A stretch of DNA of 64,000 nucleotides from a virus (taxonomy: Duplodnaviria; Caudoviricetes), in the IMG/VR virus record IMGVR_UViG_3300020374_000001, one strand, 5' to 3'. The stretch's first letter is position 1. Each line of letters opens with the position of its first letter. Both the position numbers and the translations under genes were made by a program. This document shows positions 8,191-32,616 of the stretch, one piece after another. The notes under the pieces were generated by a model. The model was not told the origin of the DNA and searched no databases. It was given only the letters and a program-made list of their open reading frames with translations.

Positions 8191-8209
8191 TAAGAAAGAA
8201 TTAGGAATT

Positions 8210-9706
8210 ATGCCAGCAATTATAACAAATAAATTTAGATTAAACAACGCTGAACAATTTGCAGAATCATTTTCTGAAACAGCAAACAACGTCTATTATC
8301 TAGGTATTGGAAGACCACAACCTTTTGGTACTTTAACAAGACCAGACGGAAGAACAGATTACGAAGGTACAGACGCATTACCAAATACACCTGCTGATTC
8401 AACAGGTAGAGAATTTTATACTTTTGACGATTTAGTTGCTGCTAAAAGAGTACAATCTTCAGATGTTGCTTTTGTAATACCAAGAAGAAACTGGACTTCA
8501 GGTGTTGTTTACGATACTTACAGACACGACTACGGAGAATATACAACAGGATCAACAAGTGTAAGAAAAACATCAAATAGTGGTTCAACAACTTTATTTG
8601 ATTCTACTTTTTACGTATTATCTTCAGCAAGAAACGTATATAAATGTTTAGATAACAATGGTGGTGCTGTTTCAACAGACGAACCAACTGGTGTATCAAC
8701 TTCAGTAATTACAACTACTGACTCATATAAATGGAAATTTATGTACACACTTTCTGCTGCTCAACAAGCAAATTTCTTATCAACAGATTTTATGGCAGTT
8801 TCGCCAAACTCTAGTCCAGGGGCAGATCAATCAAATGTTATTTCTGCTGCTGTAGATGGAGGAATTGATATAGTTAATATTAAGGCAGGTGGATCAGGTG
8901 GTACTAACGGAACATTTACAGGAATACAAATAAGAGGAGATGGTTCTGGTGGTGTTGCTACGGTAGTAGTCGGTGGTGGACAAGTAACTTCAGTAACCGT
9001 AACTACTCCAGGAACAGGATATACTTTTGCAACAATCAGTAATGCTCAAATAGTTGCCGCTGGTGCAACTAACTTAGCAGGTTCTGAATTAGATGTAATT
9101 ATTCCACCTAAAGGTGGACACGGTGCAAATGCACAAGAAGAATTAGGTGCTTTCTTTGTAATGATGAATACAAGTTTAGAAGGAACAGAATCAGCAAACT
9201 CTGGTGACTTTTCTGCTGTAAACGATTTTAGAAAAATTGCATTATTAAGAGATCCAACAAAATCCAATTCTGCTGTAACTGGTAATACTGCTAGATTAAC
9301 AAAGGCAATTAAAATTGCTACTTCTCCTACACCAGGTACTTTTACGGTTGACGAAGAAATTAATCAGGCAACAACAGGTGCTGTCGGTAAAGTTGTAGAG
9401 TGGGACGCAACAAACAAAATTTTATACTACATACAAACAAGGCATAATGACGCTGGTGTTGACGCAGACGGAAACCTAACTGCGTTTTCAGGTGCTAATG
9501 TTATTACAGGTCAAGGTGGTAGTGCTCCTACAGGAACACCTGACACTTCATCAACAGGAACGGTTAACAATGTTTCATTTACTTCAGGATATTCAGTTCC
9601 TGAAATAGACCACGATACTGGCGATGTACTTTATATTGAAAATAGAACACCGATACAAAGGGCACCAGACCAAACGGAAAACATTAAACTGGTCATAGAA
9701 TTTTAA
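8210..9706 (+). CDS. gp8: Baseplate wedge subunit gp8
   Basis: MPAIITNKFR, IPRRNWTSG, VYKCLDN, YKWKFMY, GDVLYIENR..QTENIKLVIEF. Confidence 0.92.
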   Translation: MPAIITNKFRLNNAEQFAESFSETANNVYYLGIGRPQPFGTLTRPDGRTDYEGTDALPNTPADSTGREFYTFDDLVAAKRVQSSDVAFVIPRRNWTSGVVYDTYRHDYGEYTTGSTSVRKTSNSGSTTLFDSTFYVLSSARNVYKCLDNNGGAVSTDEPTGVSTSVITTTDSYKWKFMYTLSAAQQANFLSTDFMAVSPNSSPGADQSNVISAAVDGGIDIVNIKAGGSGGTNGTFTGIQIRGDGSGGVATVVVGGGQVTSVTVTTPGTGYTFATISNAQIVAAGATNLAGSELDVIIPPKGGHGANAQEELGAFFVMMNTSLEGTESANSGDFSAVNDFRKIALLRDPTKSNSAVTGNTARLTKAIKIATSPTPGTFTVDEEINQATTGAVGKVVEWDATNKILYYIQTRHNDAGVDADGNLTAFSGANVITGQGGSAPTGTPDTSSTGTVNNVSFTSGYSVPEIDHDTGDVLYIENRTPIQRAPDQTENIKLVIEF

Positions 9707-9717
9707 GGGGTAATTAA

Positions 9718-17895: not shown

Positions 17896-18636
17896 ATGAA
17901 TATATTATTAACAGGCAGTGAAGGCTTCATAGGTCAACACATTCAATCATTTTTAAAAGACAAACATAATCTAATTTGTATAGATAAAAAAACAGGTAAT
18001 GATTTACTTACTTGTGATTTAGACTATGATGTAGATTTAGTAATACATCTAGCAGGTTTATCAGGTGTAAGAGATAGTTTAGATAATCCTGTTGAGTATT
18101 GGACAAATAATGTAGTTGCAAGTCATAGAGTCTTTAAACAATTTAAAAACGGTCCTAAAATATTATATGCGAGTTCATCTACTGCTAGAGAACCTTGGCG
18201 TAATCCATATGCAATGAGTAAGTTTTATATGGAAACAATTGCACCACATAATGCTTTAGGTATGAGATTTACAACCGTTTATGGTCCAAATGCTAGAGAG
18301 CAAATGTTAATACCAAAAATTTTAAGAGATGATGTTTCTTATATTAACGTAGATCATAGTAGAGATTTTATACACGTTGAAGATATATTAACTGCTATAG
18401 GTTTTTTAATAGTTAATAAACCACCTAGAAAAAGAAAAGTTATAGATGTTGGTACAGGTGTTTCTCATAATTTATTGGATATTTTATCTCATCTAAATAT
18501 AGACGTAAAAGATAAGAGAATGGGAACAATGTTTGAGAGAAAAGATAATAAGGCACAGATTGGTGTATTATCTGAAATGGGTTGGATTCCAAAAACAAAC
18601 TTACTAGATTACTTAAAGGAAAATTATGATAACTAA
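17896..18636 (+). CDS. NAD-dependent nucleotide-sugar epimerase/dehydratase
   Basis: TGSEGFIG Rossmann motif, HLAG, YASSS, YAMSK catalytic YxxxK, RDFIHV. Confidence 0.93.
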   Translation: MNILLTGSEGFIGQHIQSFLKDKHNLICIDKKTGNDLLTCDLDYDVDLVIHLAGLSGVRDSLDNPVEYWTNNVVASHRVFKQFKNGPKILYASSSTAREPWRNPYAMSKFYMETIAPHNALGMRFTTVYGPNAREQMLIPKILRDDVSYINVDHSRDFIHVEDILTAIGFLIVNKPPRKRKVIDVGTGVSHNLLDILSHLNIDVKDKRMGTMFERKDNKAQIGVLSEMGWIPKTNLLDYLKENYDN

Positions 18637-19105
18637 AGAAAACTTAATTGGTGCTTATTTTATAGATAACGATAGACAAAATATAGAAATATTAACAACA
18701 AGCGAAGATAAAAAACAAATTATACCTACTATAATACCTTTTGATGAAAACAATCCTTCATTTAAAGAATTAACAAGTGTAATAACCGTTGATGATCTAC
18801 ACGAAAACACATACCAAAAAAAGAAACAAGAGCAAAAAATCTTTGAAACAAAAGTTATGGAGATTGCAAAAAAAGATGGATTGTTAGTAGATGATACTAA
18901 AATAGATAGTAAGTATTATAATAAATTAGTTTCAGCAATATTTACCGATCCTGATAATGAAGATCAATTATTTGCTTTAAAAATAGCATTATTTGAATTA
19001 GAAAAAATTAAAGATTCTAAAAATAATGAAATGAAAAAAAAATTAAGACAATCTAAAAATAAGATTGATACACTTAAAGTTGCTTTTGAGATAATAAGTA
19101 ATTAG
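18626..19105 (+). CDS. Hypothetical protein
   Basis: 159-aa ORF coupled to the epimerase. Confidence 0.7.
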   Translation: MITKENLIGAYFIDNDRQNIEILTTSEDKKQIIPTIIPFDENNPSFKELTSVITVDDLHENTYQKKKQEQKIFETKVMEIAKKDGLLVDDTKIDSKYYNKLVSAIFTDPDNEDQLFALKIALFELEKIKDSKNNEMKKKLRQSKNKIDTLKVAFEIISN

Positions 19106-19652
19106 ACCACCAACCATTCCAACCTTCTTCTAGTATGTGGTGCATTTGACCTAAAGTTACTATACTATAATCTTTTGGTTTTTCATAGATATAATTTTTT
19201 ATAGACGGACAAATTTTATCATAAGTTTCATATACAATTTGTTTATAATAAAATTCATCACTACCTTTATTATATACTTTTAAATATTCTGTATCATTTG
19301 ATTTAAACTTATCCCATATCCAAGACTTATCTCCTGTCCAAGATACAATAGATGAGTTTAACGGCGTATGTGCTGGTTCTCTCCACCAACTATCATCTAA
19401 TAGTGTAAATTCTTTTCTAATTAAATTAGGTAGTTTGTCATAGATAATAACATCTAAATCAAAGTATAAGTTTTCTCCATCTCTAAACTTATCATACATT
19501 TGAAGTTTATTATACCAATTACCATAGATGTCATTTTCAATAACCTCAAAACTATCGTAAGATAATCCTGAATAGTTATCTATCATATGTTTAAGATTTT
19601 TTACGTGCCAATCTGTAAACTTTGTACCAAATCTACAACAAATTATTCTCAT
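19074..19652 (-). CDS. GT-A fold glycosyltransferase (GT8-like)
   Basis: WYNKLQMY, LYFDLDVII (DxD), NSSIVSW. Confidence 0.75.
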   Translation of the reverse strand: MRIICCRFGTKFTDWHVKNLKHMIDNYSGLSYDSFEVIENDIYGNWYNKLQMYDKFRDGENLYFDLDVIIYDKLPNLIRKEFTLLDDSWWREPAHTPLNSSIVSWTGDKSWIWDKFKSNDTEYLKVYNKGSDEFYYKQIVYETYDKICPSIKNYIYEKPKDYSIVTLGQMHHILEEGWNGWWSNYLLSQKQL

Positions 19653-20563
19653 TTTATTTCAGTAATTTTTATGCCTCTATTGTTAAAAGAGTTTATTTTA
19701 AAATCAGCATTTTCTGGAAGTATATGTTCTACACCATATGGGTCTTTAACTTTTGTATTACCTTTGCCTTCTATATTAACTATCTTTGCTTTTCTCATAG
19801 GTAAACCAGTTCTCTTATGTGTTTCTTGTTCAGTTAAAGTAATTTTACTTCCGTTGGCTGCACCTATCATTAATTCTTTTTCATCTGATTCCCAACGCTC
19901 TCTTCCTTCTTGTCCATAACCTATACCTAATCCATAGGTAATTTTTTTTCTACCTGCTTCAACGTCTTCTAGTATGCCTAATCTTTTTTCCCAAAAATTA
20001 TCATTATCTAAATCATTATGATTTTTATTAAATCCTGTATCATAACCCATTTTAGCAGCCGCCCTTGCTGTCAAACCCATTGATATACCGATACTTACAT
20101 AAGCATTTAACCATCTCTCGTGGTGGGTGTTTTCTTTTAATGTACCATCAGCGTTAGAGTTCATTTGTGTGTTAGGTTCTTTTGCAATCCACATAATATA
20201 AACACTTGCATTTGCTTGTGAGTTTCTCCAAGTAGATGGTGGATTTCTTCTATGAGTATTGCCCCACGTGTATTTGTATAATTCTTCTATAACTTTTCTA
20301 TCATCTGTATAATACAAATCAAAATATCCTTCATATTGTTTTGACGGAGTATTTGTAGCAACCCATAATAATTCTTCTAAATTTTGTTTTCTGTCTTTTT
20401 CATTTTTTGAATTATACTTTTCATAATCCCAATTTCGTTGGACCTTTTGTATCTTACCCATTATTTGTCTTTCAAAATCCCAATTGTAGGTTTTTGCCAT
20501 ATACTTTCGCATAAAGTCTTCTTTAACTTCTAATGTGTGCTTAAATATTTTTTTAATCGCCAT
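19649..20563 (-). CDS. Nitroreductase-like flavoprotein
   Basis: QRNWD, LLWVATNTPSKQ, VSIGISMG..AAAKMGYDTGF pattern of the FMN nitroreductase fold. Confidence 0.65.
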   Translation of the reverse strand: MAIKKIFKHTLEVKEDFMRKYMAKTYNWDFERQIMGKIQKVQRNWDYEKYNSKNEKDRKQNLEELLWVATNTPSKQYEGYFDLYYTDDRKVIEELYKYTWGNTHRRNPPSTWRNSQANASVYIMWIAKEPNTQMNSNADGTLKENTHHERWLNAYVSIGISMGLTARAAAKMGYDTGFNKNHNDLDNDNFWEKRLGILEDVEAGRKKITYGLGIGYGQEGRERWESDEKELMIGAANGSKITLTEQETHKRTGLPMRKAKIVNIEGKGNTKVKDPYGVEHILPENADFKINSFNNRGIKITEIK

Positions 20564-21296
20564 TCCAATGTTCCTTTAAAAAATTTGCATTTGACTTGTG
20601 TATAGTTTTGCCAACACCTGTAAAATGTACCACTTTTATATACTTATGCACATCATCAAGTATCATATATTCAGTATCAAATTTCTTACTATAAGTTTTG
20701 TTTAAATGTAAATTTTGTTTGAAGTCATCTGTATATTTACATAACCATTGTTGTGGTGTTGTTGTTAGTTTTATATTATGTTCTTGTACTTTCCAATTAA
20801 CGTAGTTTTGTTCTCCATAATATTTTGTATGTACATCGCCATTATTGTAATAATGTAATTGCCAGTATTCAGGATTAAGTGCAAAGTCATCCCATATACT
20901 TTTTAAACTACCTGATTTAAACTTATAAAAACCACCATTAATCTTTAGTTTACTATCCCACCATTGACCATAAGTTATAATCTCATTATCTGATACAGGA
21001 TGCCCTATTAATTCATCTACGTTGCCCGTTATCACTTGGTCAATATCCATAACTATAATCTCATCTCCAGGTTTCTGATAAGCAAATTGAGGACTAAAGT
21101 ATTTTAATTTATGCCAATGTTTCTTAATATTACTTTGATGATTATAAGGTAACACAACATCTGCCTCAACATCTGTATCACTAATACATACAAACTTAAA
21201 TGGTATAGTAGAGTTTCTTTTTAAACTTCTATAAAGTTTTGAAACATAATCTGGTGTATAGAAACCATCAAAATATACGGTACATATCTTAAGCAT
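20553..21296 (-). CDS. GT-A fold glycosyltransferase (GT8-like)
   Basis: Start MLKICTVY at 21296; FVCISD, WHKLKYF, MDIDQV (DxD), GEQNY, VVHFTG. Confidence 0.8.
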   Translation of the reverse strand: MLKICTVYFDGFYTPDYVSKLYRSLKRNSTIPFKFVCISDTDVEADVVLPYNHQSNIKKHWHKLKYFSPQFAYQKPGDEIIVMDIDQVITGNVDELIGHPVSDNEIITYGQWWDSKLKINGGFYKFKSGSLKSIWDDFALNPEYWQLHYYNNGDVHTKYYGEQNYVNWKVQEHNIKLTTTPQQWLCKYTDDFKQNLHLNKTYSKKFDTEYMILDDVHKYIKVVHFTGVGKTIHKSNANFLKEHWNGD

Positions 21297-22152
21297 AATA
21301 TCTTCTCCAACATACATCAAATTTTTTATTGATTGCGTGTACAAATTTAGTTTCTTTAGGTATAAATCCTTGTCTATCAAAGAAGTAATGCCATTCATTA
21401 TCTAACCATTGTACAGGTACGTTATGTTCATTTAACTTAACACTAAACAAAGTTTCATTATCATAACCAAAAAAATCTACAATTTTTTTAGGAAATACAT
21501 CATAGTTTGTTGTTAGATTTTTCATTGTTTTAATATCATTATCAAAGTCATCAAAGTATTTTAGTTTGTTTATGTGTTCTTTATTTGCACCAATTATACC
21601 TGTATTAATTACTTTGTTTATAGGACTTAAACCTTTCTCTATTAACATTGCCTGAGCATTATAATATTTTGCTGTAGGACTTCTAATAGTTTGAGTTTGT
21701 TTAGTAATAGTTTCAATAGTATTAACTTTGTAGGTATTATCAAATACTGCAATACCTTTATCTAAATTCCAATTGTCAAAGAAGTTATCTTTAGTCAAAC
21801 AAACAACATCAAAATCTAAATAAAGTATTTCATCATAAGTTTTTGATAATTCACAAAGCAAATTTAGTTTATAAAAGTTGACTATATTATAAGTTGTAAT
21901 AAATGGATAATGTTTTTTAACTTCTTTTTCAAATTTTTGATAACGAAGATCATACTCAAACATCATAAAAGGTACACCTATTGATTCTGCATACCATTTT
22001 TTATTTGCTAATAACTTAAAGTAATTATATTTAAACTCATTTTTAGTAACAATGTTTCTAGGTATTTCGTGTTTCTTTAAAACATCTTTATCAAATATAT
22101 CTAATTCATCTTCAGGTATATCAATGTAAAAACTATAAATTATTCTTTTCAT
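21289..22152 (-). CDS. GT-A fold glycosyltransferase
   Basis: YDEILYLDFDVV (DxD), INTGII, DNETL, FVHAI. Confidence 0.75.
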   Translation of the reverse strand: MKRIIYSFYIDIPEDELDIFDKDVLKKHEIPRNIVTKNEFKYNYFKLLANKKWYAESIGVPFMMFEYDLRYQKFEKEVKKHYPFITTYNIVNFYKLNLLCELSKTYDEILYLDFDVVCLTKDNFFDNWNLDKGIAVFDNTYKVNTIETITKQTQTIRSPTAKYYNAQAMLIEKGLSPINKVINTGIIGANKEHINKLKYFDDFDNDIKTMKNLTTNYDVFPKKIVDFFGYDNETLFSVKLNEHNVPVQWLDNEWHYFFDRQGFIPKETKFVHAINKKFDVCWRRYYA

Positions 22153-22735
22153 ATTTACCTATCAATATAAATCTTGTTCCTCTATCATCAACTATTCTAT
22201 CTTCTTTAATTACTTTTGCATTATCAGGCAACTGCCATTTAAATTCTTCAATTGAAGATACACAATTAATATGACCTTCAATGTCATACATATTGTTAGA
22301 GGTAAAAGCAAAATAAGCATTCGTATCTAACTCTAATTTTTTCATAGATGGCATATGTTCACAAGAGGTATTAATTATTAAATCTGTATTTTTTATTCTA
22401 CTAGAATCAGGTGCCCAATTAAATACGTCATCACATATAAAATCTACATTTTTATAATGATTAAATAATCTGTTTTTTGCTATACTAATAACATCTTTAT
22501 CTTTATCAATTAATGTAATTCTTTTTACTTCTTTAAAAGCAGGTATTAATATACTGCCATACCATCCACCAAAGATTACTATTTCCGAATCTGTTCTTAA
22601 TATTAACTGATCTCTAATAAGTTTAATTATTTTTTCTTTTGATAAAAACTGATTAGGACTAAATGAATCTAAAAGATCACTATTGTGCCTAGATTCTGCC
22701 ATTATATTTTTAAATAATTGTAAATCTACATCCAT
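22133..22735 (-). CDS. Class I SAM-dependent methyltransferase
   Basis: IVIFGGWYG motif I, LIDKD motif II, DLIINTSCEHM. Confidence 0.8.
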   Translation of the reverse strand: MDVDLQLFKNIMAESRHNSDLLDSFSPNQFLSKEKIIKLIRDQLILRTDSEIVIFGGWYGSILIPAFKEVKRITLIDKDKDVISIAKNRLFNHYKNVDFICDDVFNWAPDSSRIKNTDLIINTSCEHMPSMKKLELDTNAYFAFTSNNMYDIEGHINCVSSIEEFKWQLPDNAKVIKEDRIVDDRGTRFILIGKYEKNNL

Positions 22736-23442
22736 TTTACTATCTCATCTATTTCAGGTTTTACATCCCATTTATCTTTACCCCATTTTTTCATATCTTG
22801 CTCTCTATATCTTTTTGCATAACCACAACTTATCATTGTTATAGGTCTTGTTTTTACCATAGTTAATCCTCTTGCGTGCCATTGTTCTGGTCTTCTTCTA
22901 AAACAAGAATTGTAAGATATATCTAAACCTTCTTCTAGTAAATAATATCCTAAATTACCTGCAAATAAACCTACCTCAACTGATACTGAATCTATTATAT
23001 GTTCAAACAAATGTTCATAACCTTGATCGTATTGATGTCCTTGTTCAATTTTTTCTTTGTACCATTTATTCGGCGTAGATACTCTACTATGTATTGTAAA
23101 TAGATATGGATTATATGCTACGTGTTCATAAAATGGATTAGGAAAATTGCCAAATTCTGGATTTTCTTTTTGTGTTGTAGTGTTAGGTAATTTTGGATCT
23201 TTTTTTGCTTCTATCTCTACAGCATCGTGGGATGCAACAACTAAACTATGTATTGCTTCTTTATGTATTTGTTTGTCAGGTCCCCAAACTAATACTTGAT
23301 ATGGTACGGCATTATTTTTTCCTGGAGTTGTTTTCCACGCTTTCCATAATGCTCTTTCTATAATATCTTTAGGTGGTATCCTATTCATATCATATTTTTT
23401 AACGTGTTTTCTTTTCTTTTCTAATGTATCAAAGTAATTCAT
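22726..23442 (-). CDS. Nitroreductase-like flavoprotein
   Basis: KRKHVKKYD, AWKTTPGKNNAVPY, EVGLFAGNL..LLEEGLDISY, ISCGY. Confidence 0.7.
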   Translation of the reverse strand: MNYFDTLEKKRKHVKKYDMNRIPPKDIIERALWKAWKTTPGKNNAVPYQVLVWGPDKQIHKEAIHSLVVASHDAVEIEAKKDPKLPNTTTQKENPEFGNFPNPFYEHVAYNPYLFTIHSRVSTPNKWYKEKIEQGHQYDQGYEHLFEHIIDSVSVEVGLFAGNLGYYLLEEGLDISYNSCFRRRPEQWHARGLTMVKTRPITMISCGYAKRYREQDMKKWGKDKWDVKPEIDEIVKWM

Positions 23443-24929
23443 TTTCTAATTATCCAATCGTTAATAACTAATAGATCAAGTGCTGTTTTATTAAATGTTC
23501 TTAATGCGTGTGAGGGTGTTTCTACAATAGGTTCGTGTTTATTAAAACTTGTATTTAATAACATAGGTATACCTGTAATAACATAAAACTCTCTTACAAG
23601 TTCATACAATTTATTATTTTGTTCTTTGTTTACCGTTTGTATTCTTGCTGTATTATCAACGTGAGTTACACCAGGTATTTTATCTGATTTAACTTTACAT
23701 ATTCTACTCATATAAGGACTAGGACTATTTGTATCAAAATATTTTTTGTAGTGTTCTTCTAATACAACAGGTGCAAATGGTCTAAAGTCTTCTCTCATTT
23801 TTATAGTATGATTGATAACATCTTTAATATCTTTTCTTCTTGGATCTGCTAATATACTTCTATTACCTAATGCTCTATTACCACTTTCTGATTTACCTTG
23901 AAACCAACCTACTATTTTTCCATCAGCAATTGCCTGTGCTACTTCTTTATAAGATGTTAATTTTTCATCTCCTACAAAATCATATTCTTTACCACCATAT
24001 GTTTCTGATTTATGTATGTTGTCATTCATTAAGTAATCAGCGTGTTGATAAACTCCTATTGCTTGACCTTCATCACCTACAGCAGGTGGTACAAAAACAT
24101 TTTTATAATGTTTTGTAAATTCTTCATTCATATAACCATTATAAGCAACACCACCTGCAATGCAAATATTATCACAAGTTTTTAATGGATAAACATATTC
24201 TTTAATTTTATCCATTGTAAATTTTTGTAAAGTAAATGCTAAATTTTCTTTTCCATATTCTAAATTAATTAGATTATGTACTTTAAGATTTTTTTCTGTT
24301 ATATCTCCTGATACCATTGTTTCAAATACATCATAATAATATTGATTATAACTACCGTATGCTGCTAAACCCATAAGTTTACTAGCACATAAAGAACCAA
24401 AACCTGTAACCCTTGACATTCTATTCCATAACCAACCTAATGGCAACTCTTTAGTTAAGTCTATTATGTTTTCATCTTTATCAATGAATATACATCTAAA
24501 CTTATAACCTAATCCGTCTATAGCAAGTATATCTGACTTCTCAAAACCTGAATTAATGAACGCATAAGTGGCGTGTGCTTGATGATGGTCTATAAAATAA
24601 AGATCATCATTGAAATAATGATCCCATAATTTTTTAGGTTTATAATCTAATACTTCTTTTGGCAATATATCTTTGCACATTTTAATCCCACCAGCAGTCA
24701 TAGAAAATGCTAGTGTTTCATTATCTCTTTTTTTAAAATATTCTTTTACATATTCATTATTCAATCTGTAATCACTTGTGTTTATCTTATCTGATTGATG
24801 AGCATATGCGTCAACGTGATAAGGCATATTATGTTTAAATCTAGTAAATCTTTCTCGTTGATTATGCCACACACCATCATATGTATTATGGTCGTGTAAG
24901 TTTAATGCAACAGCAAATATTTTAGTCAT
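23439..24929 (-). CDS. O-carbamoyltransferase (NodU/CmcH/TobZ family)
   Basis: ERFTRFKH, HHQAHA, KLMGLAAYG, AGGVAYN, GDEG, RALGNRSILADPR, REDFRPFAP, LNTSFN. Confidence 0.95.
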   Translation of the reverse strand: MTKIFAVALNLHDHNTYDGVWHNQRERFTRFKHNMPYHVDAYAHQSDKINTSDYRLNNEYVKEYFKKRDNETLAFSMTAGGIKMCKDILPKEVLDYKPKKLWDHYFNDDLYFIDHHQAHATYAFINSGFEKSDILAIDGLGYKFRCIFIDKDENIIDLTKELPLGWLWNRMSRVTGFGSLCASKLMGLAAYGSYNQYYYDVFETMVSGDITEKNLKVHNLINLEYGKENLAFTLQKFTMDKIKEYVYPLKTCDNICIAGGVAYNGYMNEEFTKHYKNVFVPPAVGDEGQAIGVYQHADYLMNDNIHKSETYGGKEYDFVGDEKLTSYKEVAQAIADGKIVGWFQGKSESGNRALGNRSILADPRRKDIKDVINHTIKMREDFRPFAPVVLEEHYKKYFDTNSPSPYMSRICKVKSDKIPGVTHVDNTARIQTVNKEQNNKLYELVREFYVITGIPMLLNTSFNKHEPIVETPSHALRTFNKTALDLLVINDWIIRK

Positions 24930-25785
24930 AGATAGGTTCCAATTCTTCTTGTAATCTTTCTGATTCAGTTATAACTTTAGCATATTTTCTCATAGGAAAA
25001 TGTCCTTTAGGTTGTACCCATTCTGTACAAGTTTCACAATACTTTTCATATTTAAATAATTGAAAGTTCATCATCTTGTCAACATTTTCTTGTGTCAATT
25101 CAAAAGTTTTAGATAGCTCTTTATTATTAGCAAATTTTTTACTACAATGTACAATGTGTTTCTTTTCAAAATCTATTACAGGTACCATAGGAAAAGCAGC
25201 ACACATCTTCCTATCTATTTCAGTTGCTTGTAGAACATCTGTAAACTCTTTTGATCTGCCATTAAATTCTTTCCACATAGTATTCTTGTGATTTAATTTT
25301 TTCATAATTTCAGGATACTTGTGATTAAATGCAAAATAATTTGGTGTCTTTACGACTACATTATAATTATTAAAATCATTTTCAGGTACAAAGTCAAAGT
25401 TACCTAACATCTTTACCTCGTCCTCGTACCAATCTAATATGTTATGTTCAACATATAATATATCCTTATCTTCTAATATATGTGGGTATCTTTTTCTTAT
25501 AAACGAATTAGATAATACTGAACAAACAAAATTAGGATACTTTTTAATTTCATTAATAACATCATCTAAATTTTTAATAAGACCTGGTTCTCCACCAAGT
25601 AAACATATTCTTATCTTATAGTTTTTAAATTTCTCTAAAGTGCTTTTAAGAAAGTCCATATCTACGGTCAGGTTTCTCATCTCTAAAGTATAACTTGTAC
25701 AATAGTGGCAGTCCTTGTTACAGGACATAGATAAAAAGAAATCTATTGCTAAATAATTATCTTGTATTTCTTGTAATGTTTTCAT
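24922..25785 (-). CDS. Radical SAM enzyme with C-terminal Cys (twitch/SPASM-like) region
   Basis: CNKDCHYC, GGEP, later C..C..CETC; probable start MKTLQ at 25785. Confidence 0.88.
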   Translation of the reverse strand: MKTLQEIQDNYLAIDFFLSMSCNKDCHYCTSYTLEMRNLTVDMDFLKSTLEKFKNYKIRICLLGGEPGLIKNLDDVINEIKKYPNFVCSVLSNSFIRKRYPHILEDKDILYVEHNILDWYEDEVKMLGNFDFVPENDFNNYNVVVKTPNYFAFNHKYPEIMKKLNHKNTMWKEFNGRSKEFTDVLQATEIDRKMCAAFPMVPVIDFEKKHIVHCSKKFANNKELSKTFELTQENVDKMMNFQLFKYEKYCETCTEWVQPKGHFPMRKYAKVITESERLQEELEPIYD

Positions 25786-27031
25786 AAAATTTGTTAAACG
25801 CAATCTTTAATTTTCTTTTATCTTTAAAAGAAACATCTTCAATATATCCTGGTGTTTGATAAGTTTTCTCTATTATATAATCGTAAATATCTTCAGTAGT
25901 TTCGTTGACTAAACTACTATCAAATATGTCATCACCTATTAATTTTTTCATACTATCTACAAACTTATTATCTTCTTGGTCTAAAAAAATAAGAATAGTA
26001 TTAATAACTTTATCTACTTCTTGTTGACTCATATATGCGTGTATAGGTAATGTCAATATACTATCGCAAACTATCTTACTAATAAATGTACTATCTTTTT
26101 TATGTTCTATATTTTTATACATAATATTTTCAGACAATGGTTTATCATAATGTACTTTTGCATTAAGTTTTTCTTTTAATCTATCTCTTACTTCTTTATT
26201 TTGTAATCTAATAACATATTTGTGATAGTTATGGTTAAGACCATTTGTTGTAGGTTGTATAGTTACATATTCTTGTAATTGTTTATCATATTGTTTTGCT
26301 ATTGCTTGTCTTTTAGATTGCCATTGTTTCATTCTTTGTAATCTAAAATTAATAAATTTAGCATTAAGTAATAACATCTTTGAGTTATATCCTAATACTT
26401 CATTGTTTCCGTGTCTTCTTAACTTCTTAAATAATTCTGCCTTATCTTTATCATCTGTTAAGATTGCCCCACCACCTGCTATACCAGCAACTACTTTATT
26501 TGCATTGAAACTTAATGTACTAATATCTCCTATTGATCCTGCCTTAACTTCATTTAAACTAGACCCTAACGATTGAGCAGCGTCTTCTATAAATGCAATA
26601 TTCTTTTCTTTACAAAAATCTATTATCTCTTTTGTATCTGACATATTGCCGAATAGATGAGGATAAACAATTGCTTTTGTTTTATCCGAGTACATTCTTT
26701 TAATACTATCTAAAGACATATGATAGTTTAATATATTAATATCACAGAATACAGGTGTTGCACCTGCCATAGATATACAAGACGCAGTTGATATCCAAGA
26801 GAAGTTAGATGTTAATACTTCATCATCTGATTTAAGATTTAAACTTATCAAAGCAAAGTGTAAAGCGTCTGTTCCATTACTACACGCAACAGCATATTTT
26901 CTACCTGTAATATCTGTAAGAGATTTTTCTAAAAACTCTACATTTTGTTCCTGATCTTGTTGCATAACATCATCAAAGAGTTTTAGATATTCTTGTTTGT
27001 TTGTTAAGTATTCTTTTTTATAACCGTTCAT
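25757..27031 (-). CDS. DegT/DnrJ/EryC1/StrS PLP-dependent sugar aminotransferase
   Basis: SNGTDAL, GATPVFCD, IEDAAQSLG, SFNANK catalytic Lys, LTLPIH. Confidence 0.95.
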   Translation of the reverse strand: MNGYKKEYLTNKQEYLKLFDDVMQQDQEQNVEFLEKSLTDITGRKYAVACSNGTDALHFALISLNLKSDDEVLTSNFSWISTASCISMAGATPVFCDINILNYHMSLDSIKRMYSDKTKAIVYPHLFGNMSDTKEIIDFCKEKNIAFIEDAAQSLGSSLNEVKAGSIGDISTLSFNANKVVAGIAGGGAILTDDKDKAELFKKLRRHGNNEVLGYNSKMLLLNAKFINFRLQRMKQWQSKRQAIAKQYDKQLQEYVTIQPTTNGLNHNYHKYVIRLQNKEVRDRLKEKLNAKVHYDKPLSENIMYKNIEHKKDSTFISKIVCDSILTLPIHAYMSQQEVDKVINTILIFLDQEDNKFVDSMKKLIGDDIFDSSLVNETTEDIYDYIIEKTYQTPGYIEDVSFKDKRKLKIAFNKFYENITRNTR

Positions 27032-27773
27032 ATATAAACTCCGCTATTATTTCTTGTCCTTTTTTATTCGGATGATGATCTAAATTAGAAATCATTGTAT
27101 CTAAATTATTATAAGGATAAACTCCTGTATGTTTTGATCTTATGCCTATTAATCTTTTTTGAAGACTATAACCTCCATATTCGTGTGATAATGGCCAACC
27201 TAAAAATTTTTTTTGATTTATTAAATCTTCGTATTCATCAATCATCTTAATAATTTTTAAATTATCTTCTTCTTCATCACCAGGATATGTGTATCTAAAA
27301 TCTGGAGGATATTTAGAATCATTATCTCTCGGTCTTAAACCATTCAACCAATCAATATAAGGAGATAACATTTGTACTTGCATATATGGTATGTTATATC
27401 TTTCACATAATATTTGAAAACTTAAATAGTTATCTAATGTTCTTCTCATCCAACTAAACACATCTCCGTCTGGATCAACTCTTTGATTTTGCCAATAACC
27501 TTTAACTTGATAATCTTTTCTTTGATTTTGTGTCCACGCAGGTATGACTAGACCAATTTTATCTTTATTAGTTCTTGTAATATATCTTAATAAAGTTGTG
27601 TAAATATATTCGTTACCCATTCCAGATTTAGCAAGATTAACAGGTTCCATATCTAGTTTCTTTGCTAAAATCTCTGGCCATTTTGGCCAAGTACAATCTA
27701 AATCTGGATGTACATCGCTATAAAAATCTTTTTCTGTATTGCTACAACCACTAACTAATAATATTTTTTTCAT
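27018..27773 (-). CDS. SGNH/GDSL-like hydrolase or acyltransferase
   Basis: GCSNT, WPEILA, NLAKSGMGN, DHHPNKKG block pattern. Confidence 0.65.
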   Translation of the reverse strand: MKKILLVSGCSNTEKDFYSDVHPDLDCTWPKWPEILAKKLDMEPVNLAKSGMGNEYIYTTLLRYITRTNKDKIGLVIPAWTQNQRKDYQVKGYWQNQRVDPDGDVFSWMRRTLDNYLSFQILCERYNIPYMQVQMLSPYIDWLNGLRPRDNDSKYPPDFRYTYPGDEEEDNLKIIKMIDEYEDLINQKKFLGWPLSHEYGGYSLQKRLIGIRSKHTGVYPYNNLDTMISNLDHHPNKKGQEIIAEFIYERL

Positions 27774-28620
27774 ATAATTTTACTAATATACTTATGTTCT
27801 TTTTATAAATCTCATTTGTGGGCATAGGTCTATTCCAATATACCATACCACCATCTTTAATATCTTTACTTCTTACGTAATTTACATTTTTACCTAACCA
27901 TTTAAACTCTAAAAACAATCTAGGTGCAGGATCAAAATTAGGTTTTGTATATACATATGTTTCAAATTTACCTAGTATATTTTCAACAGGTGCAAATAGA
28001 TTATTTAATTTAGGATTAATCCACTTTTCATTATAAGTTACAATACCGTGATCTGGATACTTGTGTATGTGTTTTTCTATTTCTTTATAATATATTTCAT
28101 TCGTACCTAAAAATAGATGTTTATATTGTATTTCATTTTTAACAGGTTTATATAAATCAAAGTTAATTATTTTTTCATATTGTATACCTTCACCGTTAGG
28201 ATAAACATCAAAGTCGCATAAGTCAAATACTTTATTTGGTTTAAAATATTCTAATGCAAGAGGATATTCTTTTGGATGATTTTCTGAATATACTGCTATA
28301 ATTTTATTATTAAATAATAGATGTAAAGATAACTTTTCATCCGTAGTATAATTCTTTATATCTTTGTATGCTAAAGTTATCATACTTCTACCTAATACTA
28401 AAGTTATATCTTCACTATTAGGTGTACAATCAAAGACAACATTTTTATAATTCTTATACTGATTTCTGATTGACTTGATATATTCTTCTTTAGTGTGTTT
28501 AGGATTAGGTATAATAACTAATTGTGTTTTGATACCTAGAGAATTTAGAGCGCAATTATGCTCATAACTATATCTCAATAAACCATCACCAGGTTTGCTC
28601 GTACATACTATATTAATCAT
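27751..28620 (-). CDS. Hypothetical protein, possibly GT-B glycosyltransferase-like
   Basis: First gene of the operon; weak DPAPRLFLEFKWLG resemblance to a GT-B donor-binding helix. Confidence 0.45.
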   Translation of the reverse strand: MINIVCTSKPGDGLLRYSYEHNCALNSLGIKTQLVIIPNPKHTKEEYIKSIRNQYKNYKNVVFDCTPNSEDITLVLGRSMITLAYKDIKNYTTDEKLSLHLLFNNKIIAVYSENHPKEYPLALEYFKPNKVFDLCDFDVYPNGEGIQYEKIINFDLYKPVKNEIQYKHLFLGTNEIYYKEIEKHIHKYPDHGIVTYNEKWINPKLNNLFAPVENILGKFETYVYTKPNFDPAPRLFLEFKWLGKNVNYVRSKDIKDGGMVYWNRPMPTNEIYKKNISILVKLYEKNIIS

Positions 28621-28625
28621 ACATT

Positions 28626-28654
28626 ATTATATCATATTTTCCATATTAAATCAA
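28626..28654 (-). promoter_or_regulatory. Sigma70-type promoter TTGATT-N17-TATAAT with extended -10
   Basis: Minus strand ttgatt taatatggaaaatatga tataat aatgt ATG. Confidence 0.8.
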
Positions 28655-28678
28655 TGCTATGACACTATTTATTAGTGT

Positions 28679-28686
28679 TATAAATA
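28679..28686 (+). promoter_or_regulatory. T4-type late promoter TATAAATA
   Basis: Exact consensus 5 nt before ATG 28692. Confidence 0.75.
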
Positions 28687-28691
28687 ACTAT

Positions 28692-28979
28692 ATGAGTTAT
28701 ATAGCAAAAGTAATATATACGAGACCAAATGCTGAGGTATCTTTACATACACCAGCGTCTGAATATACTGATTTAATTGATAATTATTTTAGTTCTGGAA
28801 AGATTACAGAAAAACCTACAAAATCTGAAGATGGATTAACCACTACTTGGACAACAACTTTTAATAATGAAGATGAGTTTAATGATTTTGTAAAAGAAGA
28901 AGTTTCAAAAACTAATTCTAGGACTAGAGAATCCCATTGCTCTGACAATTCTATTTCATATTCTTTAGAGAGTGAATAG
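28692..28979 (+). CDS. Small late hypothetical protein
   Basis: Start MSYIAKV placed after the late promoter; 95 aa. Confidence 0.7.
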   Translation: MSYIAKVIYTRPNAEVSLHTPASEYTDLIDNYFSSGKITEKPTKSEDGLTTTWTTTFNNEDEFNDFVKEEVSKTNSRTRESHCSDNSISYSLESE

Positions 28980-29502
28980 GTAAAGGTATATCATCTCTGG
29001 TAGCAGATATATTTTGAATACATAGAGGATTTTTCGGATCGCAAGTTTCATACAGATCAGGCAATAAACGATATCCTAAAGATGGATGTAATTGTCTTGT
29101 TAATCTTTCCATAGCATTTCTTTTTCTTTTAGTTTGTATAGAGAAAAAACAATCATAACCTTTATCTGTTGCCCATTGAGTTTGATAAGGTATAAAATAT
29201 TGTAGTGCTGGTTTTATAGGATTTGCAATAGATTTTGTCATAAAGTTATATCTATATTTTTGTTCAATATATAATCTATCTACAACTCTAACTAAATTGT
29301 TTCCATAATCATACACACCAGAAAAAGCAATTACTTCATCACCTTTAGTTAACTTTGTAATTATTAGATATTTGTTCCAACGCTTTTTCATTTGTTCTAC
29401 ATTATAATTTTTAGCGTTAGGGTGTTTTGATTTAGACGCTATCTCACACAAACTTAAAAACTCATCAATGTATGTTATCTCTTGTATAACGCAATTTTCC
29501 AT
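28951..29502 (-). CDS. Putative GNAT-fold acyltransferase
   Basis: EVIAFSGV..VRVVDRLYIEQKYR beta3/beta4-like pattern. Confidence 0.45.
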   Translation of the reverse strand: MENCVIQEITYIDEFLSLCEIASKSKHPNAKNYNVEQMKKRWNKYLIITKLTKGDEVIAFSGVYDYGNNLVRVVDRLYIEQKYRYNFMTKSIANPIKPALQYFIPYQTQWATDKGYDCFFSIQTKRKRNAMERLTRQLHPSLGYRLLPDLYETCDPKNPLCIQNISATRDDIPLPIHSLKNMK

Positions 29503-30200
29503 AAATGTCTTTTCTTACCACCGTTTTCTCTTTTGTGATTAGTCGCTTTGTTATTGTAGATTACAAGTTCACCTTTTTTCCATTTGTGTCTGTGTATTCT
29601 TTTTGGATCATAAAGTTTTTTCTTTATCATATTCATTTCAGGCAAATCATTATATGCTTCGCAATAATATAGATACACACCTCTACTATCGCCTTGTACT
29701 AATTCGTGTTCTACATTTCTATACTTTCTTCTAAACCATCTTCTTTCTGCTTCACTTCTAAAATGATATCCATACTCATTGTCGTGTATAAATCTATTCA
29801 TATCAAATTGTACTATATCATTTTTATGATCTCTATAATAATCAGGTATATCTTCAAGTATTCTACTATCTACAAATAATGTATCTCCTGCGCCTTCATC
29901 TATATCAACAGAATATAACGCAACATATTCAGGTGGGTGTTCAGAATAACCTTTATCAATATGCCACTCTAATTCTGTATTACCTTTTAGATTTTCTTTT
30001 GCTAATGCTCTTTCATCACTAACTATATTAACAAACATTTGGTCAAACGGATCTTGTGGTGCAGGTTTAAAAAATGTTTCTAAAAAGTTCCATATTTCAA
30101 CTTGACTACCAGGTGTATTTTCTATAACCGTTAGGTCTACATCATTTTGTAGTAAGTCAAAAACGGTTCTATTGTTCCAGTCTAGGCGTTGATGTTTCAT
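29475..30200 (-). CDS. TauD/TfdA Fe(II)/2OG dioxygenase
   Basis: WHID, GDTLFVD, HKWKKGELVIYNN..TNHKR, RHLWK. Confidence 0.9.
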   Translation of the reverse strand: MKHQRLDWNNRTVFDLLQNDVDLTVIENTPGSQVEIWNFLETFFKPAPQDPFDQMFVNIVSDERALAKENLKGNTELEWHIDKGYSEHPPEYVALYSVDIDEGAGDTLFVDSRILEDIPDYYRDHKNDIVQFDMNRFIHDNEYGYHFRSEAERRWFRRKYRNVEHELVQGDSRGVYLYYCEAYNDLPEMNMIKKKLYDPKRIHRHKWKKGELVIYNNKATNHKRENGGKKRHLWKIALYKR

Positions 30201-31071
30201 CTATTTCTCCATAGTATTCAAAAAACGGTTCAATATTATAATCGTCTGTTAAAATACCTCTTCTTTTACTTCCACTATCTGGTAAACCATCATCATCTAT
30301 TGACCAGTCTGTTGCTTTACCATACATAGTTCCTATTTCAGTATTAAAACTGAAAACACAAGTGTGCTCTTCTTTATAACCTTGTACTTCAAATATAGGT
30401 TCAAAATCTCCAAAGTTTTCTTTTGCAATATCTATCAATTCGTTTATATTATATGTATAAGTGTCTAAATAGTTTCCCATTTTACCTACTGATTTTATTC
30501 TCATCATAATAGGAAAAGATTTGCCAGGTTTTCTATCATATTTTTTACATAACATTATAACATAATCTAATAGTGGTTTCAGTATATGTATATTAGTAGG
30601 ATCAACTATTACGTTAATATGTGGTACTATTTTATGTTTGATACAATTTTCTAATGCTTTCTTTTTTGCAGTTGCAAATTTTCCGTTATCAAATCTTTTA
30701 TATACTTCATCATCTAATCCACCATTCATACTTAAACCTAGAAAATTTAATCCTGATTTTTTAAGATTGATAACATATTGTTCTTGGAATAATTTAAGAC
30801 CATTAGTAAGTAATGATGGTTTATGTTTATACTTTCTTGCAATCTTTATTAGGTCAAAAAGTTTATCATTCATAGTAGGTTCAGCACCTATAAAACGAAT
30901 ATCACAACGCTTAGGTAGTTTACTAATTGCCTGTTCAAATTTAATCATATCTACATCAGGAAATTTAGGATTATTTAACATATCTCCTAGATAACAATTA
31001 GCACACGCCATATTACATTGATATGTTGTTTGTATTGATATGCTGTGAAATGTATTTTTTTCAGGTATCAT
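30169..31071 (-). CDS. Radical SAM enzyme
   Basis: CNMACANC, GAEPT, LTNG; no second cluster motif evident. Confidence 0.9.
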   Translation of the reverse strand: MIPEKNTFHSISIQTTYQCNMACANCYLGDMLNNPKFPDVDMIKFEQAISKLPKRCDIRFIGAEPTMNDKLFDLIKIARKYKHKPSLLTNGLKLFQEQYVINLKKSGLNFLGLSMNGGLDDEVYKRFDNGKFATAKKKALENCIKHKIVPHINVIVDPTNIHILKPLLDYVIMLCKKYDRKPGKSFPIMMRIKSVGKMGNYLDTYTYNINELIDIAKENFGDFEPIFEVQGYKEEHTCVFSFNTEIGTMYGKATDWSIDDDGLPDSGSKRRGILTDDYNIEPFFEYYGEIDETSTPRLEQ

Positions 31072-31772
31072 CTTATAGCAATTCTATTCATTAATCTTTC
31101 ATTCATTTTATCAAAGGCGTGTCTTTTATGTATTGTCAACCATTGTTCACTTACAACTAAATCACCATCTTCCCAATGATGATCGTATCTATACTTATCT
31201 TGTAGAATATGATTCTTTAAATAATTAAACAAATCATCTGGTATACCTTCAATTATTTGTAAAAAAGGAAAGTATAATCCTTTTTGTCCATACTCATTTA
31301 TATAAACTAACTTATGAACATTATCTTTATTATGATGTTCTCTAAATGTAGGATCATCTGTATAACCACCTTTTTTAAAACCACAAGTAAATTTTATATT
31401 ATGACAACGTAATTTTATATCATCTGGTAAATCCTCATATGCTTTTCTATTATCAATCCAACTTGTAACACTACCTTTACTTCCTTTTACAGCATATATC
31501 CAAATTATTGAACATCTATTAACTTCACTAGGTTTGTTAGCGTGCCAATCTAATTTTTCTTTATGTCCAAACAATCCACCTTCAGTAACTTTTACTACAC
31601 CAGGAATACCGCCCCATTTATTAAATAATTCTAAATGAGTAGAATCTGTTAAGTCAGGTTTTTCTACTTCACCAATAGTTTCTGCTAACTTTAATTGTTC
31701 TTCAGGTGATACTTGTCCTATTTTTTCTACGCAAACTAAATTAGTAAATACTTTTTCTCTTGTTATATTCAT
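31068..31772 (-). CDS. TauD/TfdA-like dioxygenase (HxN variant)
   Basis: WHAN, TSWID..AYEDLP, HHWEDGDLVV..TIHKR, RLMNR. Confidence 0.88.
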   Translation of the reverse strand: MNITREKVFTNLVCVEKIGQVSPEEQLKLAETIGEVEKPDLTDSTHLELFNKWGGIPGVVKVTEGGLFGHKEKLDWHANKPSEVNRCSIIWIYAVKGSKGSVTSWIDNRKAYEDLPDDIKLRCHNIKFTCGFKKGGYTDDPTFREHHNKDNVHKLVYINEYGQKGLYFPFLQIIEGIPDDLFNYLKNHILQDKYRYDHHWEDGDLVVSEQWLTIHKRHAFDKMNERLMNRIAIR

Positions 31773-32554
31773 TTTACAAATAATTTCTCACTAACAATTT
31801 CTTTAATAGGTTTGCCAAAATATTTATTGGGTTTATACTTATCTGTTTCTTTATCATAATCTAACCAAGGTGTTAATCCCATAACAACATTAATTCTAGG
31901 TTCTTTTGTTTCTACTTGTTTTATCATAGTAGGTCTATGTGGTTGTTTTGTATTCCACAAATATGCTTTACCTATTTCTAATTGATATATTTTATCTTTC
32001 CATTCTATAGCATATTCATCACTAGTTTGTAAAGGTATGTTAACTCTTAATAATTGACAAGTAGGTTCATCAACGTGCCAACCTTTATCGTTAGGTCCTT
32101 CTCCATATCCAAAAATATATGCAACTCTACTCCTAGATATATGAAAATTAAATCTATCTAAAAAAAATCCTAGATGTTCTTGTATTGTTTCATCTATCTT
32201 TCTAAAACCAAATGTATCATAATAAGTATCTTTTAATTGTGTATGATCTCCTTTGCCTTTTTCTAAACCATAGTATTGATCTAACAATGGCGATCCCCAT
32301 ACTTGACTATATCTACTTTCAGATTTATCAAAAAATGTAGGGTTGTAAGTTAACCCAAAACCTTTGTATTTTTGATGAGTTTGATGTTTAGTTCTCCAAC
32401 TTGTAAGACCTACTATACTTTCTATTTTTTTAACACCTTCTAGTATCTTGTCTGCTGTAGGAAGACCTAATTCTTCTAAAGTATATTCATTCCAACCAAA
32501 ATCTTCTTGTTTTTCATCTACTTTTTTAAAGTAAGATTTCACTTCATTTATCAT
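31769..32554 (-). CDS. Fe(II)/2OG oxygenase, Asp/Asn beta-hydroxylase-like
   Basis: Start MINEVK at 32554; WHVDE, RVNIPLQT, GKAYLWNTKQPH, RINVV. Confidence 0.8.
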   Translation of the reverse strand: MINEVKSYFKKVDEKQEDFGWNEYTLEELGLPTADKILEGVKKIESIVGLTSWRTKHQTHQKYKGFGLTYNPTFFDKSESRYSQVWGSPLLDQYYGLEKGKGDHTQLKDTYYDTFGFRKIDETIQEHLGFFLDRFNFHISRSRVAYIFGYGEGPNDKGWHVDEPTCQLLRVNIPLQTSDEYAIEWKDKIYQLEIGKAYLWNTKQPHRPTMIKQVETKEPRINVVMGLTPWLDYDKETDKYKPNKYFGKPIKEIVSEKLFVK

Positions 32555-32571
32555 ATCCTTATTTATTCTGT

Positions 32572-32587: not shown

Positions 32588-32616
32588 ATTATAACACGAG
32601 GAGAATATAATGTCAA
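32588..32616 (-). promoter_or_regulatory. Perfect-consensus sigma70 promoter TTGACA-N17-TATAAT with extended -10
   Basis: Minus strand ttgaca ttatattctcctcgtgt tataat, 33 nt before ATG 32554. Confidence 0.85.

Follow-up and report, generated by a model that had tools for sequence, protein, structure and literature searches.

The locus analyzed here raises the question of whether a run of five adjacent genes for putative oxidative enzymes in a phage genome represents a single pathway and, if so, what kind of molecule is modified. The genes (g1 to g5) are located at positions 28951-32554, on the minus strand, of a viral sequence of 64,000 nucleotides (IMG/VR record IMGVR_UViG_3300020374_000001), the whole of which is referred to as the window. 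In an original prediction, made from the sequence, they had been described as an operon encoding an AspH-like oxygenase, a TauD-type oxygenase, a radical S-adenosylmethionine (SAM) enzyme, a second TauD-type oxygenase and a GNAT-like protein, and had been read as one pathway. According to the present analysis, g1-g5 form a single transcription unit within the hypervariable host-recognition island carried by a T4-like phage of SAR11, and the cassette is a mosaic of three modules: g1; g2, which encodes a TauD-family protein whose metal site is HxN; and an invariant trio, g3-g4-g5, accompanied by a small late protein. The linkage of the enzymes and the interchangeability of their partners are firm, whereas the substrate may, tentatively, be an amphiphilic molecule of the cell envelope.

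The five minus-strand open reading frames (ORFs) fill the interval, as had been predicted, and neighbouring genes overlap, from g1 to g5, by 4, 4, 32 and 28 nt, so that translational coupling is plausible. The first gene, g1 (31769-32554), encodes a soluble Fe(II)/2-oxoglutarate (2OG) oxygenase of 261 aa with an AspH/Cpz10 fold; its start was taken as the ATG at 32554, and a longer, TTG-started ORF to 32719 would cross the promoter. It is followed by g2 (31068-31772; TauD/TfdA-family protein, 234 aa), g3 (30169-31071; radical SAM enzyme, 300 aa), g4 (29475-30200; TauD/TfdA-family Fe(II)/2OG oxygenase, 241 aa) and g5 (28951-29502; divergent GNAT-fold protein, 183 aa), all on the minus strand. 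No intrinsic terminator was detected 3' of g5; the three terminator-like sites equal the chance expectation. A sixth gene, absent from the original prediction, lies on the plus strand (28692-28979); it encodes a small conserved protein of ~95 aa and is convergent with g5, which it overlaps by 29 nt.

The family assignments of all five genes, the "GNAT-like" one included, were borne out by Pfam, alignments and predicted models. Both g2 (85.2 bits) and g4 (66.9 bits) exceed the gathering cut-off of 27 for Pfam TauD (PF02668). In g4, the canonical Fe(II)/2OG facial triad (W-H-I-D...H...R) is conserved in the alignment as WHID...NHKR...KRH. The metal site of g2 (W76-H77-A-N79), in contrast, has Asn for the iron-binding Asp, and thus no carboxylate (Asp/Glu) as second metal ligand; this Asn is invariant in 13 homologues (36-100% identity), and in the profile alignment Asn79 is opposite the Asp of the TfdA WHSD motif, while the distal His and Arg are kept. 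The claim of three Fe(II)/2OG oxygenases of two families therefore holds for the families, but the canonical HxD...H triad occurs in only two of the three proteins. A literature search for a natural HxN 2OG oxygenase gave nothing relevant, and the conserved HxN of a TauD-family protein amounts to a natural experiment on the 2-His-1-carboxylate triad.

Several named functions were rejected. The alternative that the TauD-type enzymes act on taurine does not hold, as g2 and g4 reach 19.5 and 21.5 bits, respectively, against the taurine dioxygenase model (NCBIfam NF007104), whose cut-off is 313; scores of the cassette members against other named equivalogs in NCBIfam were likewise all far below the cut-offs. 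An Fe/2OG halogenase was dismissed for g2, since every homologue examined has Asn, not Ala or Gly, and nothing points to halogenation. In bacteria, a TauD-family protein encoded beside a g3-like radical SAM gene on a Bdellovibrionales chromosome (OZ241848.1; locus L151:6757-7713:+) bears WHTN, which shows that HxN occurs outside phages as well; further TauD-family neighbours of the g3-type gene in bacteria carry WHND, WHSD or WHRD.

The identity of g1 needed a fold search, its sequence having found no match among solved structures at E<=5. Against PF05118 (Asp_Arg_Hydrox) it scored 16.4 bits (E 0.0084), below the gathering cut-off of 22.6, and two close homologues bear a precomputed PF05118 tag. 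The residues H160, D162, H206 and R220 are invariant among 25 homologues (30-85% identity) and supply the canonical HxD...H motif and the 2OG-binding Arg. The AlphaFold model (predicted local distance difference test, pLDDT, 88.5) has its best match in Cpz10 (Foldseek E 3.9e-9; VIA Z 15.2, root mean square deviation 2.7 A, 162 residues, 20% identity), an AspH-like enzyme that serves as beta-hydroxylase in the biosynthesis of caprazamycin (PMC9814697). Human AspH follows with Z of 11.4-11.8, and the next oxygenase families reach at most 11.2. The predicted model, whose match stands above those to other double-stranded beta-helix oxygenases, thus assigns g1 to the AspH/Cpz10 structural subgroup of 2OG oxygenases.

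A further association of g1-like proteins was evident elsewhere. A 507-aa fusion protein (L071:7299-8819:+) joins a domain resembling the product of window positions 20553-21398 (m20553; 25% identity) to a g1-like oxygenase (42% identity), and in the distant phages L079, L081 and L085 the m20553-like and g1-like genes are adjacent and unfused. On account of this fusion and adjacency, g1 probably works with the m20553-like family.

The product of g3 exceeds the cut-off of the Pfam Radical_SAM model (45.9 versus 29.5 bits) and carries the motif CNMACANC, whose cysteines (C19, C23 and C26) are kept in all full-length homologues, in keeping with the radical SAM superfamily. This CX3CX2C site is its only cluster motif, since the cysteines that might bind an auxiliary cluster (C56, C143, C175 and C238) are not conserved in the homologues (30-57% identity), and a SPASM/twitch domain is accordingly lacking; a C-terminal ITDW...RRG..T...PFFE motif is conserved. 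The nearest solved relative is the lipid-tail-coupling enzyme Tes/GDGT-MAS (7tol, E 6e-13), and the nucleoside-sugar decarboxylase BlsE is matched as well (E 2e-5; NCBIfam 6.7e-10). Among the PHROGs, g3 matches generic radical SAM families only, and the other cassette proteins have no match.

For g5, no match was obtained in Pfam, NCBIfam or PHROG. Its model (pLDDT 88.3) matches GNAT acetyltransferases only (Foldseek probability 1.0; best VIA Z 12.2; 193 chains with Z>=8), including protein N-terminal acetyltransferases such as RimI (Z 12.2), and the protein is on this basis predicted to have the GNAT fold. A profile of the g5 family retrieved 188 cluster representatives and weakly matches the GNAT structure 3t9y; two of 47 members match Pfam GNAT models (PF00583). 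R84 aligns with the Arg of the acyl-CoA motif A (Q/R-x-x-G-x-G/A), the glycines of which are absent, and the corresponding loop of the model (80-97) is of low confidence. The annotated N-acetyltransferase of Pelagibacter phage Mosig was rejected as a member of the family (hhalign probability 4.5%, unrelated).

The small protein starts at M12 of the plus-strand ORF, directly after a late promoter. Homologues (18-33% identity) occur in L031, L014, L010, L012, L004 and L011, where the start is the residue that aligns with M12, and in other loci the family is always found beside the GNAT gene, on either strand. A profile search gave no bacterial homologue.

The conservation of the cassette was assessed in 131 loci, obtained by IMG/VR scans with g2, the g1 family and the g5 family and mapped by tblastn. 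The genes g3, g4 and g5 occur in fixed order and with overlapping frames in 18 distinct viral contigs, g4 always being located between g3 and g5. All five genes occur together in five of these 18 contigs, the phage of the window included, while six contigs have g1 and the trio without g2, and one has g2 and the trio without g1. In many other contexts g2 is found alone. The commonest gene at the island border is g1, which also appears alone or together with a divergent radical SAM, nitroreductase, QueC-like ATPase or FA_desaturase gene. The synteny expected of a five-gene pathway was thus found for the trio, but not for g1 and g2, and the idea of one conserved five-gene pathway has to be given up; a lack of joint conservation, which the original prediction had named as a refutation, applies in part.

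The extreme form of that outcome would be that five unrelated auxiliary metabolic genes have piled up in a recombination hot spot, each acting alone on common metabolites (sulfonates, amino acids) or simply consuming 2OG. The independent reassortment of g1 and g2 and the hypervariability of the island are in line with this explanation, which is nevertheless very improbable: the trio keeps its order and overlaps in all 18 contigs, the taurine dioxygenase scores of g2 and g4 are far under the cut-off, and distant bacteria show these families grouped around a g3-type radical SAM gene as well, as described below.

The replacement of whole modules is most apparent in the nearest sister phage (L031/L032), in which the flanks are 82-100% identical to the window. 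Its set comprises g1, a 95-aa small protein, an FA_desaturase-family membrane protein, a GNAT protein and a TauD protein (each of 25% identity) and g2, so that the FA_desaturase-family protein replaces the radical SAM enzyme. This different set indicates that the enzyme classes persist while whole modules are replaced. Partner proteins of the FA_desaturase family have 3-4 transmembrane segments. Genes for QueC-like PP-loop ATPases were also seen in the same slot beside g1/g4-type oxygenases (L013:7206-7895:+ and L076:8729-9337:+), as another interchangeable module.

The promoters differ with the orientation of the cassette. The sigma70-type promoter of the original prediction proved to be perfect: TTGACA-N17-TATAAT with an extended TG (32588-32616, minus strand; score 12/12), ahead of g1, is the only perfect match within the window, and it is kept at 12/12 in L052 and at 10/12 in L031/L032. 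Between this promoter and g1, a near-consensus putative T4-type late promoter absent from the original prediction, AATAAATA (32560-32567, minus strand), is located 5 nt upstream of the start codon, in the same position as the consensus TATAAATA ahead of g1 in 14 sister loci. The consensus late promoter itself precedes the start codon of the small protein (28679-28686, plus strand) by 5 nt (28687-28691). The plus strand carries all 16 copies of TATAAATA in the window, most of them immediately 5' of structural genes; examples are at 1637, 6519, 8183, 32572, 33169 and 41240. The ATAAATA core occurs 25 times in the window (versus 50 +/- 7 expected), with only four copies on the minus strand. This scarcity suggests selection against stray late promoters and, at half the expected frequency, the few minus-strand copies (ahead of g1 and ahead of the next operon) are probably meaningful.

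Several sister phages carry the entire cassette in the reverse orientation with respect to its flanks. When it is co-directional with the tail-fibre genes (14 loci), TATAAATA stands 5 bases before the g1 start codon; in the orientation found in the window, L052 and L031, the sigma70 promoter takes the place of the consensus late promoter. From the promoter sequences we infer that the phage of the window would express the cassette both early and late, and most of its relatives late. A search for flanking inverted repeats that might explain the inversion gave only short AT-rich matches at 70-86%, and hence no evidence for the site of a site-specific invertase. In some sister phages (L004/L034 7189-7215; L036, L047 and L043), a glycosyltransferase-like gene and g1 diverge from a spacer of ~25 nt, TATTTATATAAATA, which consists of two back-to-back late promoters with bases in common.

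Counterparts of the trio were sought in bacteria by a scan with the g3 alignment of one genome per prokaryotic species. Full-length g3 homologues of 30-40% identity were detected in at least 55 bacterial loci in the Alphaproteobacteria, Bdellovibrionales, Acidobacteriota and Planctomycetota, the alphaproteobacterial isolates including Labrenzia alba CECT 7551, Roseibium sp. SCP14 and Alteraurantiacibacter aestuarii JCM 16339. When the neighbouring genes of 55 loci were clustered and named by Pfam, they included AspH-like (17), FA_desaturase (13), GNAT (13), heme-oxygenase-like diiron (11), TauD (7-8), GDSL (6) and ABC exporter (6) proteins. The layouts fall into several types: GNAT, AspH-like and radical SAM genes in Alphaproteobacteria; unknown protein, AspH-like, FA_desaturase and radical SAM genes in Bdellovibrionales; radical SAM, TauD and sometimes GNAT genes with an ABC exporter, in one case with an RTX protein, in Geminicoccaceae; radical SAM, heme-oxygenase-like diiron and unknown protein genes in Acidobacteriota and Planctomycetota; and radical SAM, diiron protein and GDSL hydrolase genes in Caulobacteraceae and Sphingomonadales. 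With the phage-family profiles, true members of the g5 family were recognized next to the radical SAM gene at three loci, L138, L141 and L151 (E 1e-24 to 1e-25), the first of which also has a member of the g1 family there (E 3e-37); L138 and L151 are Bacteriovoracaceae and Bdellovibrionales chromosomes. The phage FA_desaturase proteins share 30-40% identity with those of Bdellovibrionales (E down to 6e-39). By these comparisons, the trio and its partner families appear to be the phage version of an uncharacterised bacterial operon family built around the same radical SAM enzyme.

Two of the loci call for separate mention. In a Geminicoccaceae metagenome-assembled genome (MAG), a 777-aa RTX calcium-binding repeat protein (L134:5505-7835:+) is encoded directly before radical SAM, TauD, GNAT and ABC exporter genes (7935-12462), a layout which hints at a secreted repeat protein as the target of modification or export in some versions of the system. 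Another locus, L133 (NZGL01000008.1, 108 kb, labelled as a gammaproteobacterial MAG), combines radical SAM, TauD, TauD and g5-like GNAT genes with ThyX, a DUF2201/VWA protein and a further two radical SAM genes. The contig has the look of a large phage that was binned wrongly; carrying ThyX and DUF2201, the locus may be viral and was not counted as bacterial evidence.

In a wider reading, the cassette would represent, in phages, a pathway that is widespread and so far undescribed. At its centre would stand a radical SAM enzyme with a single cluster, working with a GNAT protein and with oxygen-dependent iron enzymes that can replace one another (AspH-like, TauD, membrane diiron and heme-oxygenase-like diiron proteins). 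The product would be a modified envelope lipid of a novel class or a novel kind of protein modification; the HxN member of the TauD family would perform a chemistry not yet seen in 2OG oxygenases, and marine myophages would shuffle modules and promoters to diversify the product. In this full form the proposal is speculative and somewhat doubtful.

A different substrate comes into view when the late promoters and the repeat proteins are considered together, namely the proteins of the virion itself (tail fibres or the small late protein), in which the AspH-type and TauD-type oxygenases would add hydroxyl groups to side chains, the GNAT would attach an acyl group to an amine and the radical SAM enzyme would alter a residue, perhaps readying sites for the neighbouring glycosyltransferases. 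The cassette always adjoins tail-fibre genes, g1 is under the late promoter consensus of the structural genes in the 14 sister loci, and the small late protein always accompanies the GNAT; in addition, an RTX protein and an ABC exporter flank the radical SAM-TauD-GNAT genes in L134, beta-solenoid repeat proteins precede the cassette-type genes in L151, RimI is among the structural neighbours of g5, and AspH hydroxylates proteins. Modification of virion proteins is nonetheless unlikely. The most similar fibres (80-100% identity), those of L018 versus L031/L032, are accompanied by different cassettes; the membrane partners of the FA_desaturase family are ill-suited to a soluble protein substrate; g3 is without the SPASM/twitch domain typical of peptide maturases; and the RTX context is confined to one lineage. 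To our knowledge, moreover, no TauD-family enzyme acts on a folded protein.

The surroundings of the cassette bear on the remaining alternatives. The window belongs to a T4-like pelagimyophage, a phage of SAR11, that is syntenic with Pelagibacter phage Mosig, the only match to the window in a DNA search. The annotation of Mosig shows the same order as the window: VrlC, two unknown genes, an epimerase, a minus-strand block (carbamoyltransferase, radical SAM and DegT aminotransferase), a variable oxygenase set and the tail-fibre genes. The cassette is thus placed between VrlC and the tail fibres, in the host recognition cluster (HRC), which in pelagimyophages is described as hypervariable and rich in lipopolysaccharide (LPS)-type genes, and in which "radical SAM cassettes" set close genomes apart (Zaragoza-Solas et al. 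2020, PMC7029224). The region is therefore already in print as an island. The minus-strand block (19074-32554) has a G+C content of 0.28, versus 0.31-0.36 in the flanking plus-strand structural genes, and is compositionally distinct by this measure; for the biosynthetic block counted from 18001 to 32000, the values are 0.277-0.283 against the same 0.31-0.36 in the adjacent structural genes.

Downstream of the cassette, on the same strand, follow genes for a glycosyltransferase-like protein, a DegT aminotransferase, a second radical SAM enzyme, a carbamoyltransferase, a nitroreductase-like protein, a methyltransferase and GT8, and an epimerase gene is also part of this sugar-related neighbourhood; the earlier statement that no scaffold-building enzyme is in view is accordingly not borne out. 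The glycosyltransferase-like candidate (m27751) was recognized by language-model features only. The products of 19649-20563 and 22726-23442 (both on the minus strand) are nitroreductase-family relatives; homologues of the former match PF00881 (E 1e-10) in L066 and L067, where they come directly after a g1-like gene.

In light of this neighbourhood, the product might be a soluble small molecule derived from a sugar or nucleoside, such as a secondary metabolite or a modified nucleotide sugar. The analogy is with clusters for high-carbon nucleoside antibiotics, which combine a TauD-type uridine monophosphate dioxygenase, the AspH-like Cpz10, an aminotransferase, a carbamoyltransferase, a methyltransferase and a radical SAM enzyme. 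It is strengthened by Cpz10 as the top structural match of g1, by the match of g3 to BlsE, by the solubility of all proteins of the window island and by the DegT, carbamoyltransferase, methyltransferase and glycosyltransferase genes downstream. These similarities are, however, at the superfamily level only, no equivalog cut-off being approached; the cassette exists without the DegT/carbamoyltransferase block, a nucleotidyltransferase and a kinase are absent from it, and membrane proteins of the desaturase family belong to the sister cassettes and the bacterial operons. We regard such a small-molecule product as quite unlikely.

Much the same neighbours could be taken as signs of DNA base modification. 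Phage hypermodification clusters combine oxygenases, radical SAM enzymes, aminotransferases, carbamoyltransferases and glycosyltransferases, classes that overlap with the surroundings of the cassette. By analogy with the clusters for thymidine or cytosine hypermodification, the nearby carbamoyltransferase, glycosyltransferases and aminotransferase might act on a phage base, which is exceedingly improbable. Mosig, the closest isolate, has no gene of the thymidylate synthase family (PF00303) for hydroxymethyl pyrimidines, a point that by itself makes DNA modification unlikely; the oxygenases are of the TauD and AspH types, not TET/JBP; the island is among structural and not nucleotide-metabolism genes; and the membrane desaturases and exporters of the bacterial counterparts are ill-suited to a DNA substrate.

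The reading preferred here, as possible rather than probable, is that the cassette carries out oxidative and acyl tailoring of an amphiphilic envelope molecule. The enzymes encoded by g1-g5 would process a common substrate one after another. Those of the TauD and AspH types would oxidise sp3 carbons in the vicinity of a carboxylate or amide, by hydroxylation or in some other way, the radical SAM enzyme would bring about an oxygen-independent C-H functionalisation, its place being taken in sister cassettes by a membrane diiron desaturase/hydroxylase, and the GNAT would move an acyl or aminoacyl group onto an amine. The likeliest class of substrate would be an amphiphilic envelope molecule, for instance the acyl or head-group part of a glycolipid of the lipid A/lipooligosaccharide type or of an aminolipid, with the nearby glycosyltransferase and aminosugar genes perhaps supplying the glycan part. 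Swapping of modules may then provide strain-specific surface chemistry in an arms race between phage and host or among phages.

An amphiphilic substrate is favoured because membrane partners of the FA_desaturase family, GDSL hydrolases and ABC exporters adjoin the same radical SAM gene, because the nearest structure to g3 is Tes, and because LpxO and OlsC, bacterial members of the AspH family, are lipid hydroxylases. Several observations weigh against it. Characterised TauD/TfdA enzymes mostly act on small polar substrates, and the substrate of Cpz10, to which g1 is structurally closest, is a hydrophilic nucleoside-amino acid. No transmembrane segments are predicted in g1-g5 or in the other proteins of the window island, all of which are predicted to be soluble. 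The late promoter that drives the cassette in most sister phages fits virion maturation at least as well as remodelling of the host surface. The cassette is present in phages without the DegT/carbamoyltransferase block (L041-L052), so that its link to this block is not obligatory, and in the annotated bacterial loci obvious LPS/sugar genes are not adjacent to the operons.

In the ocean, SAR11 and its phages rank among the biological entities of greatest abundance, and the island beside their tail-fibre genes is large and variable. What had been an "oxygenase-rich region" is now resolved into testable units: the trio with its small partner, two optional oxygenases, and modules that replace each other. 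The homologous operons in cultivable bacteria (Labrenzia alba, Roseibium, Alteraurantiacibacter and Bdellovibrionales) make genetics and lipidomics or proteomics feasible, unlike the genetics of SAR11 phages. The original statement that no pathway with this set of enzymes has been described agrees with our searches: none of the members, whether viral or bacterial, is covered by an NCBIfam model, and a literature search for the gene combination gave nothing relevant. While the island and its variability have been published (PMC7029224), the defined cassette with its trio, the small partner, the HxN family, the inversion with promoter exchange and the bacterial operon family are absent from the curated libraries and papers searched.

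Comparison with known systems defines the position of the cassette more closely. With the HRC of pelagimyophages it shares the site, from VrlC to the tail fibres/neck, and the synteny with Mosig spans the island. The passages of the HRC paper (PMC7029224) that were searched do not describe the composition of the cassette, its invariant radical SAM-TauD-GNAT trio or the HxN protein, nor do they report its inversion and exchange of promoters or its counterparts in bacteria; a term search of the text gave neither TauD nor oxygenase.

At the level of the single enzymes, the model of g1 superposes on both Cpz10 and AspH, and g1 keeps the HxD...H triad and Arg, as in Cpz10; it differs from them in its low identity (<=20%) and in having ~90 extra residues, including a disordered insert (95-107). 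The bacterial AspH relative LpxO is membrane-anchored, whereas g1 has no transmembrane anchor. The nearest solved relatives of g2 and g4 are TfdA (profile E 1.9e-14), PIsnB (7tcl) and CarC, with which they share the conserved distal His and Arg. Members of this family (TfdA, PIsnB, CarC, AtsK and TauD) are ~280-300 aa in length, in contrast to g2 (234 aa) and g4 (241 aa), and all have Asp or Glu where g2 has Asn. As in the Fe/2OG halogenases (SyrB2, WelO5 and BesD), the carboxylate of the facial triad is lost in g2, and the change is family-wide; the halogenases, however, have Ala or Gly, which opens a halide site, whereas Asn is isosteric with Asp and can bind metal via its amide oxygen.

A parallel for the cassette as a whole is the tailoring of aminolipids and lipid A by the N-acyltransferase OlsB, by the AspH-type hydroxylases OlsC/LpxO and by OlsE, an enzyme of the fatty-acid-hydroxylase type. 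These pathways are without radical SAM or TauD-type enzymes, unlike the cassette, no member of which reaches a family-specific model. The likeness is thus one of enzyme class, in that the GNAT fold, the AspH family and the fatty acid desaturase/hydroxylase family of these pathways also occur together in the sister cassettes and in the bacterial operons.

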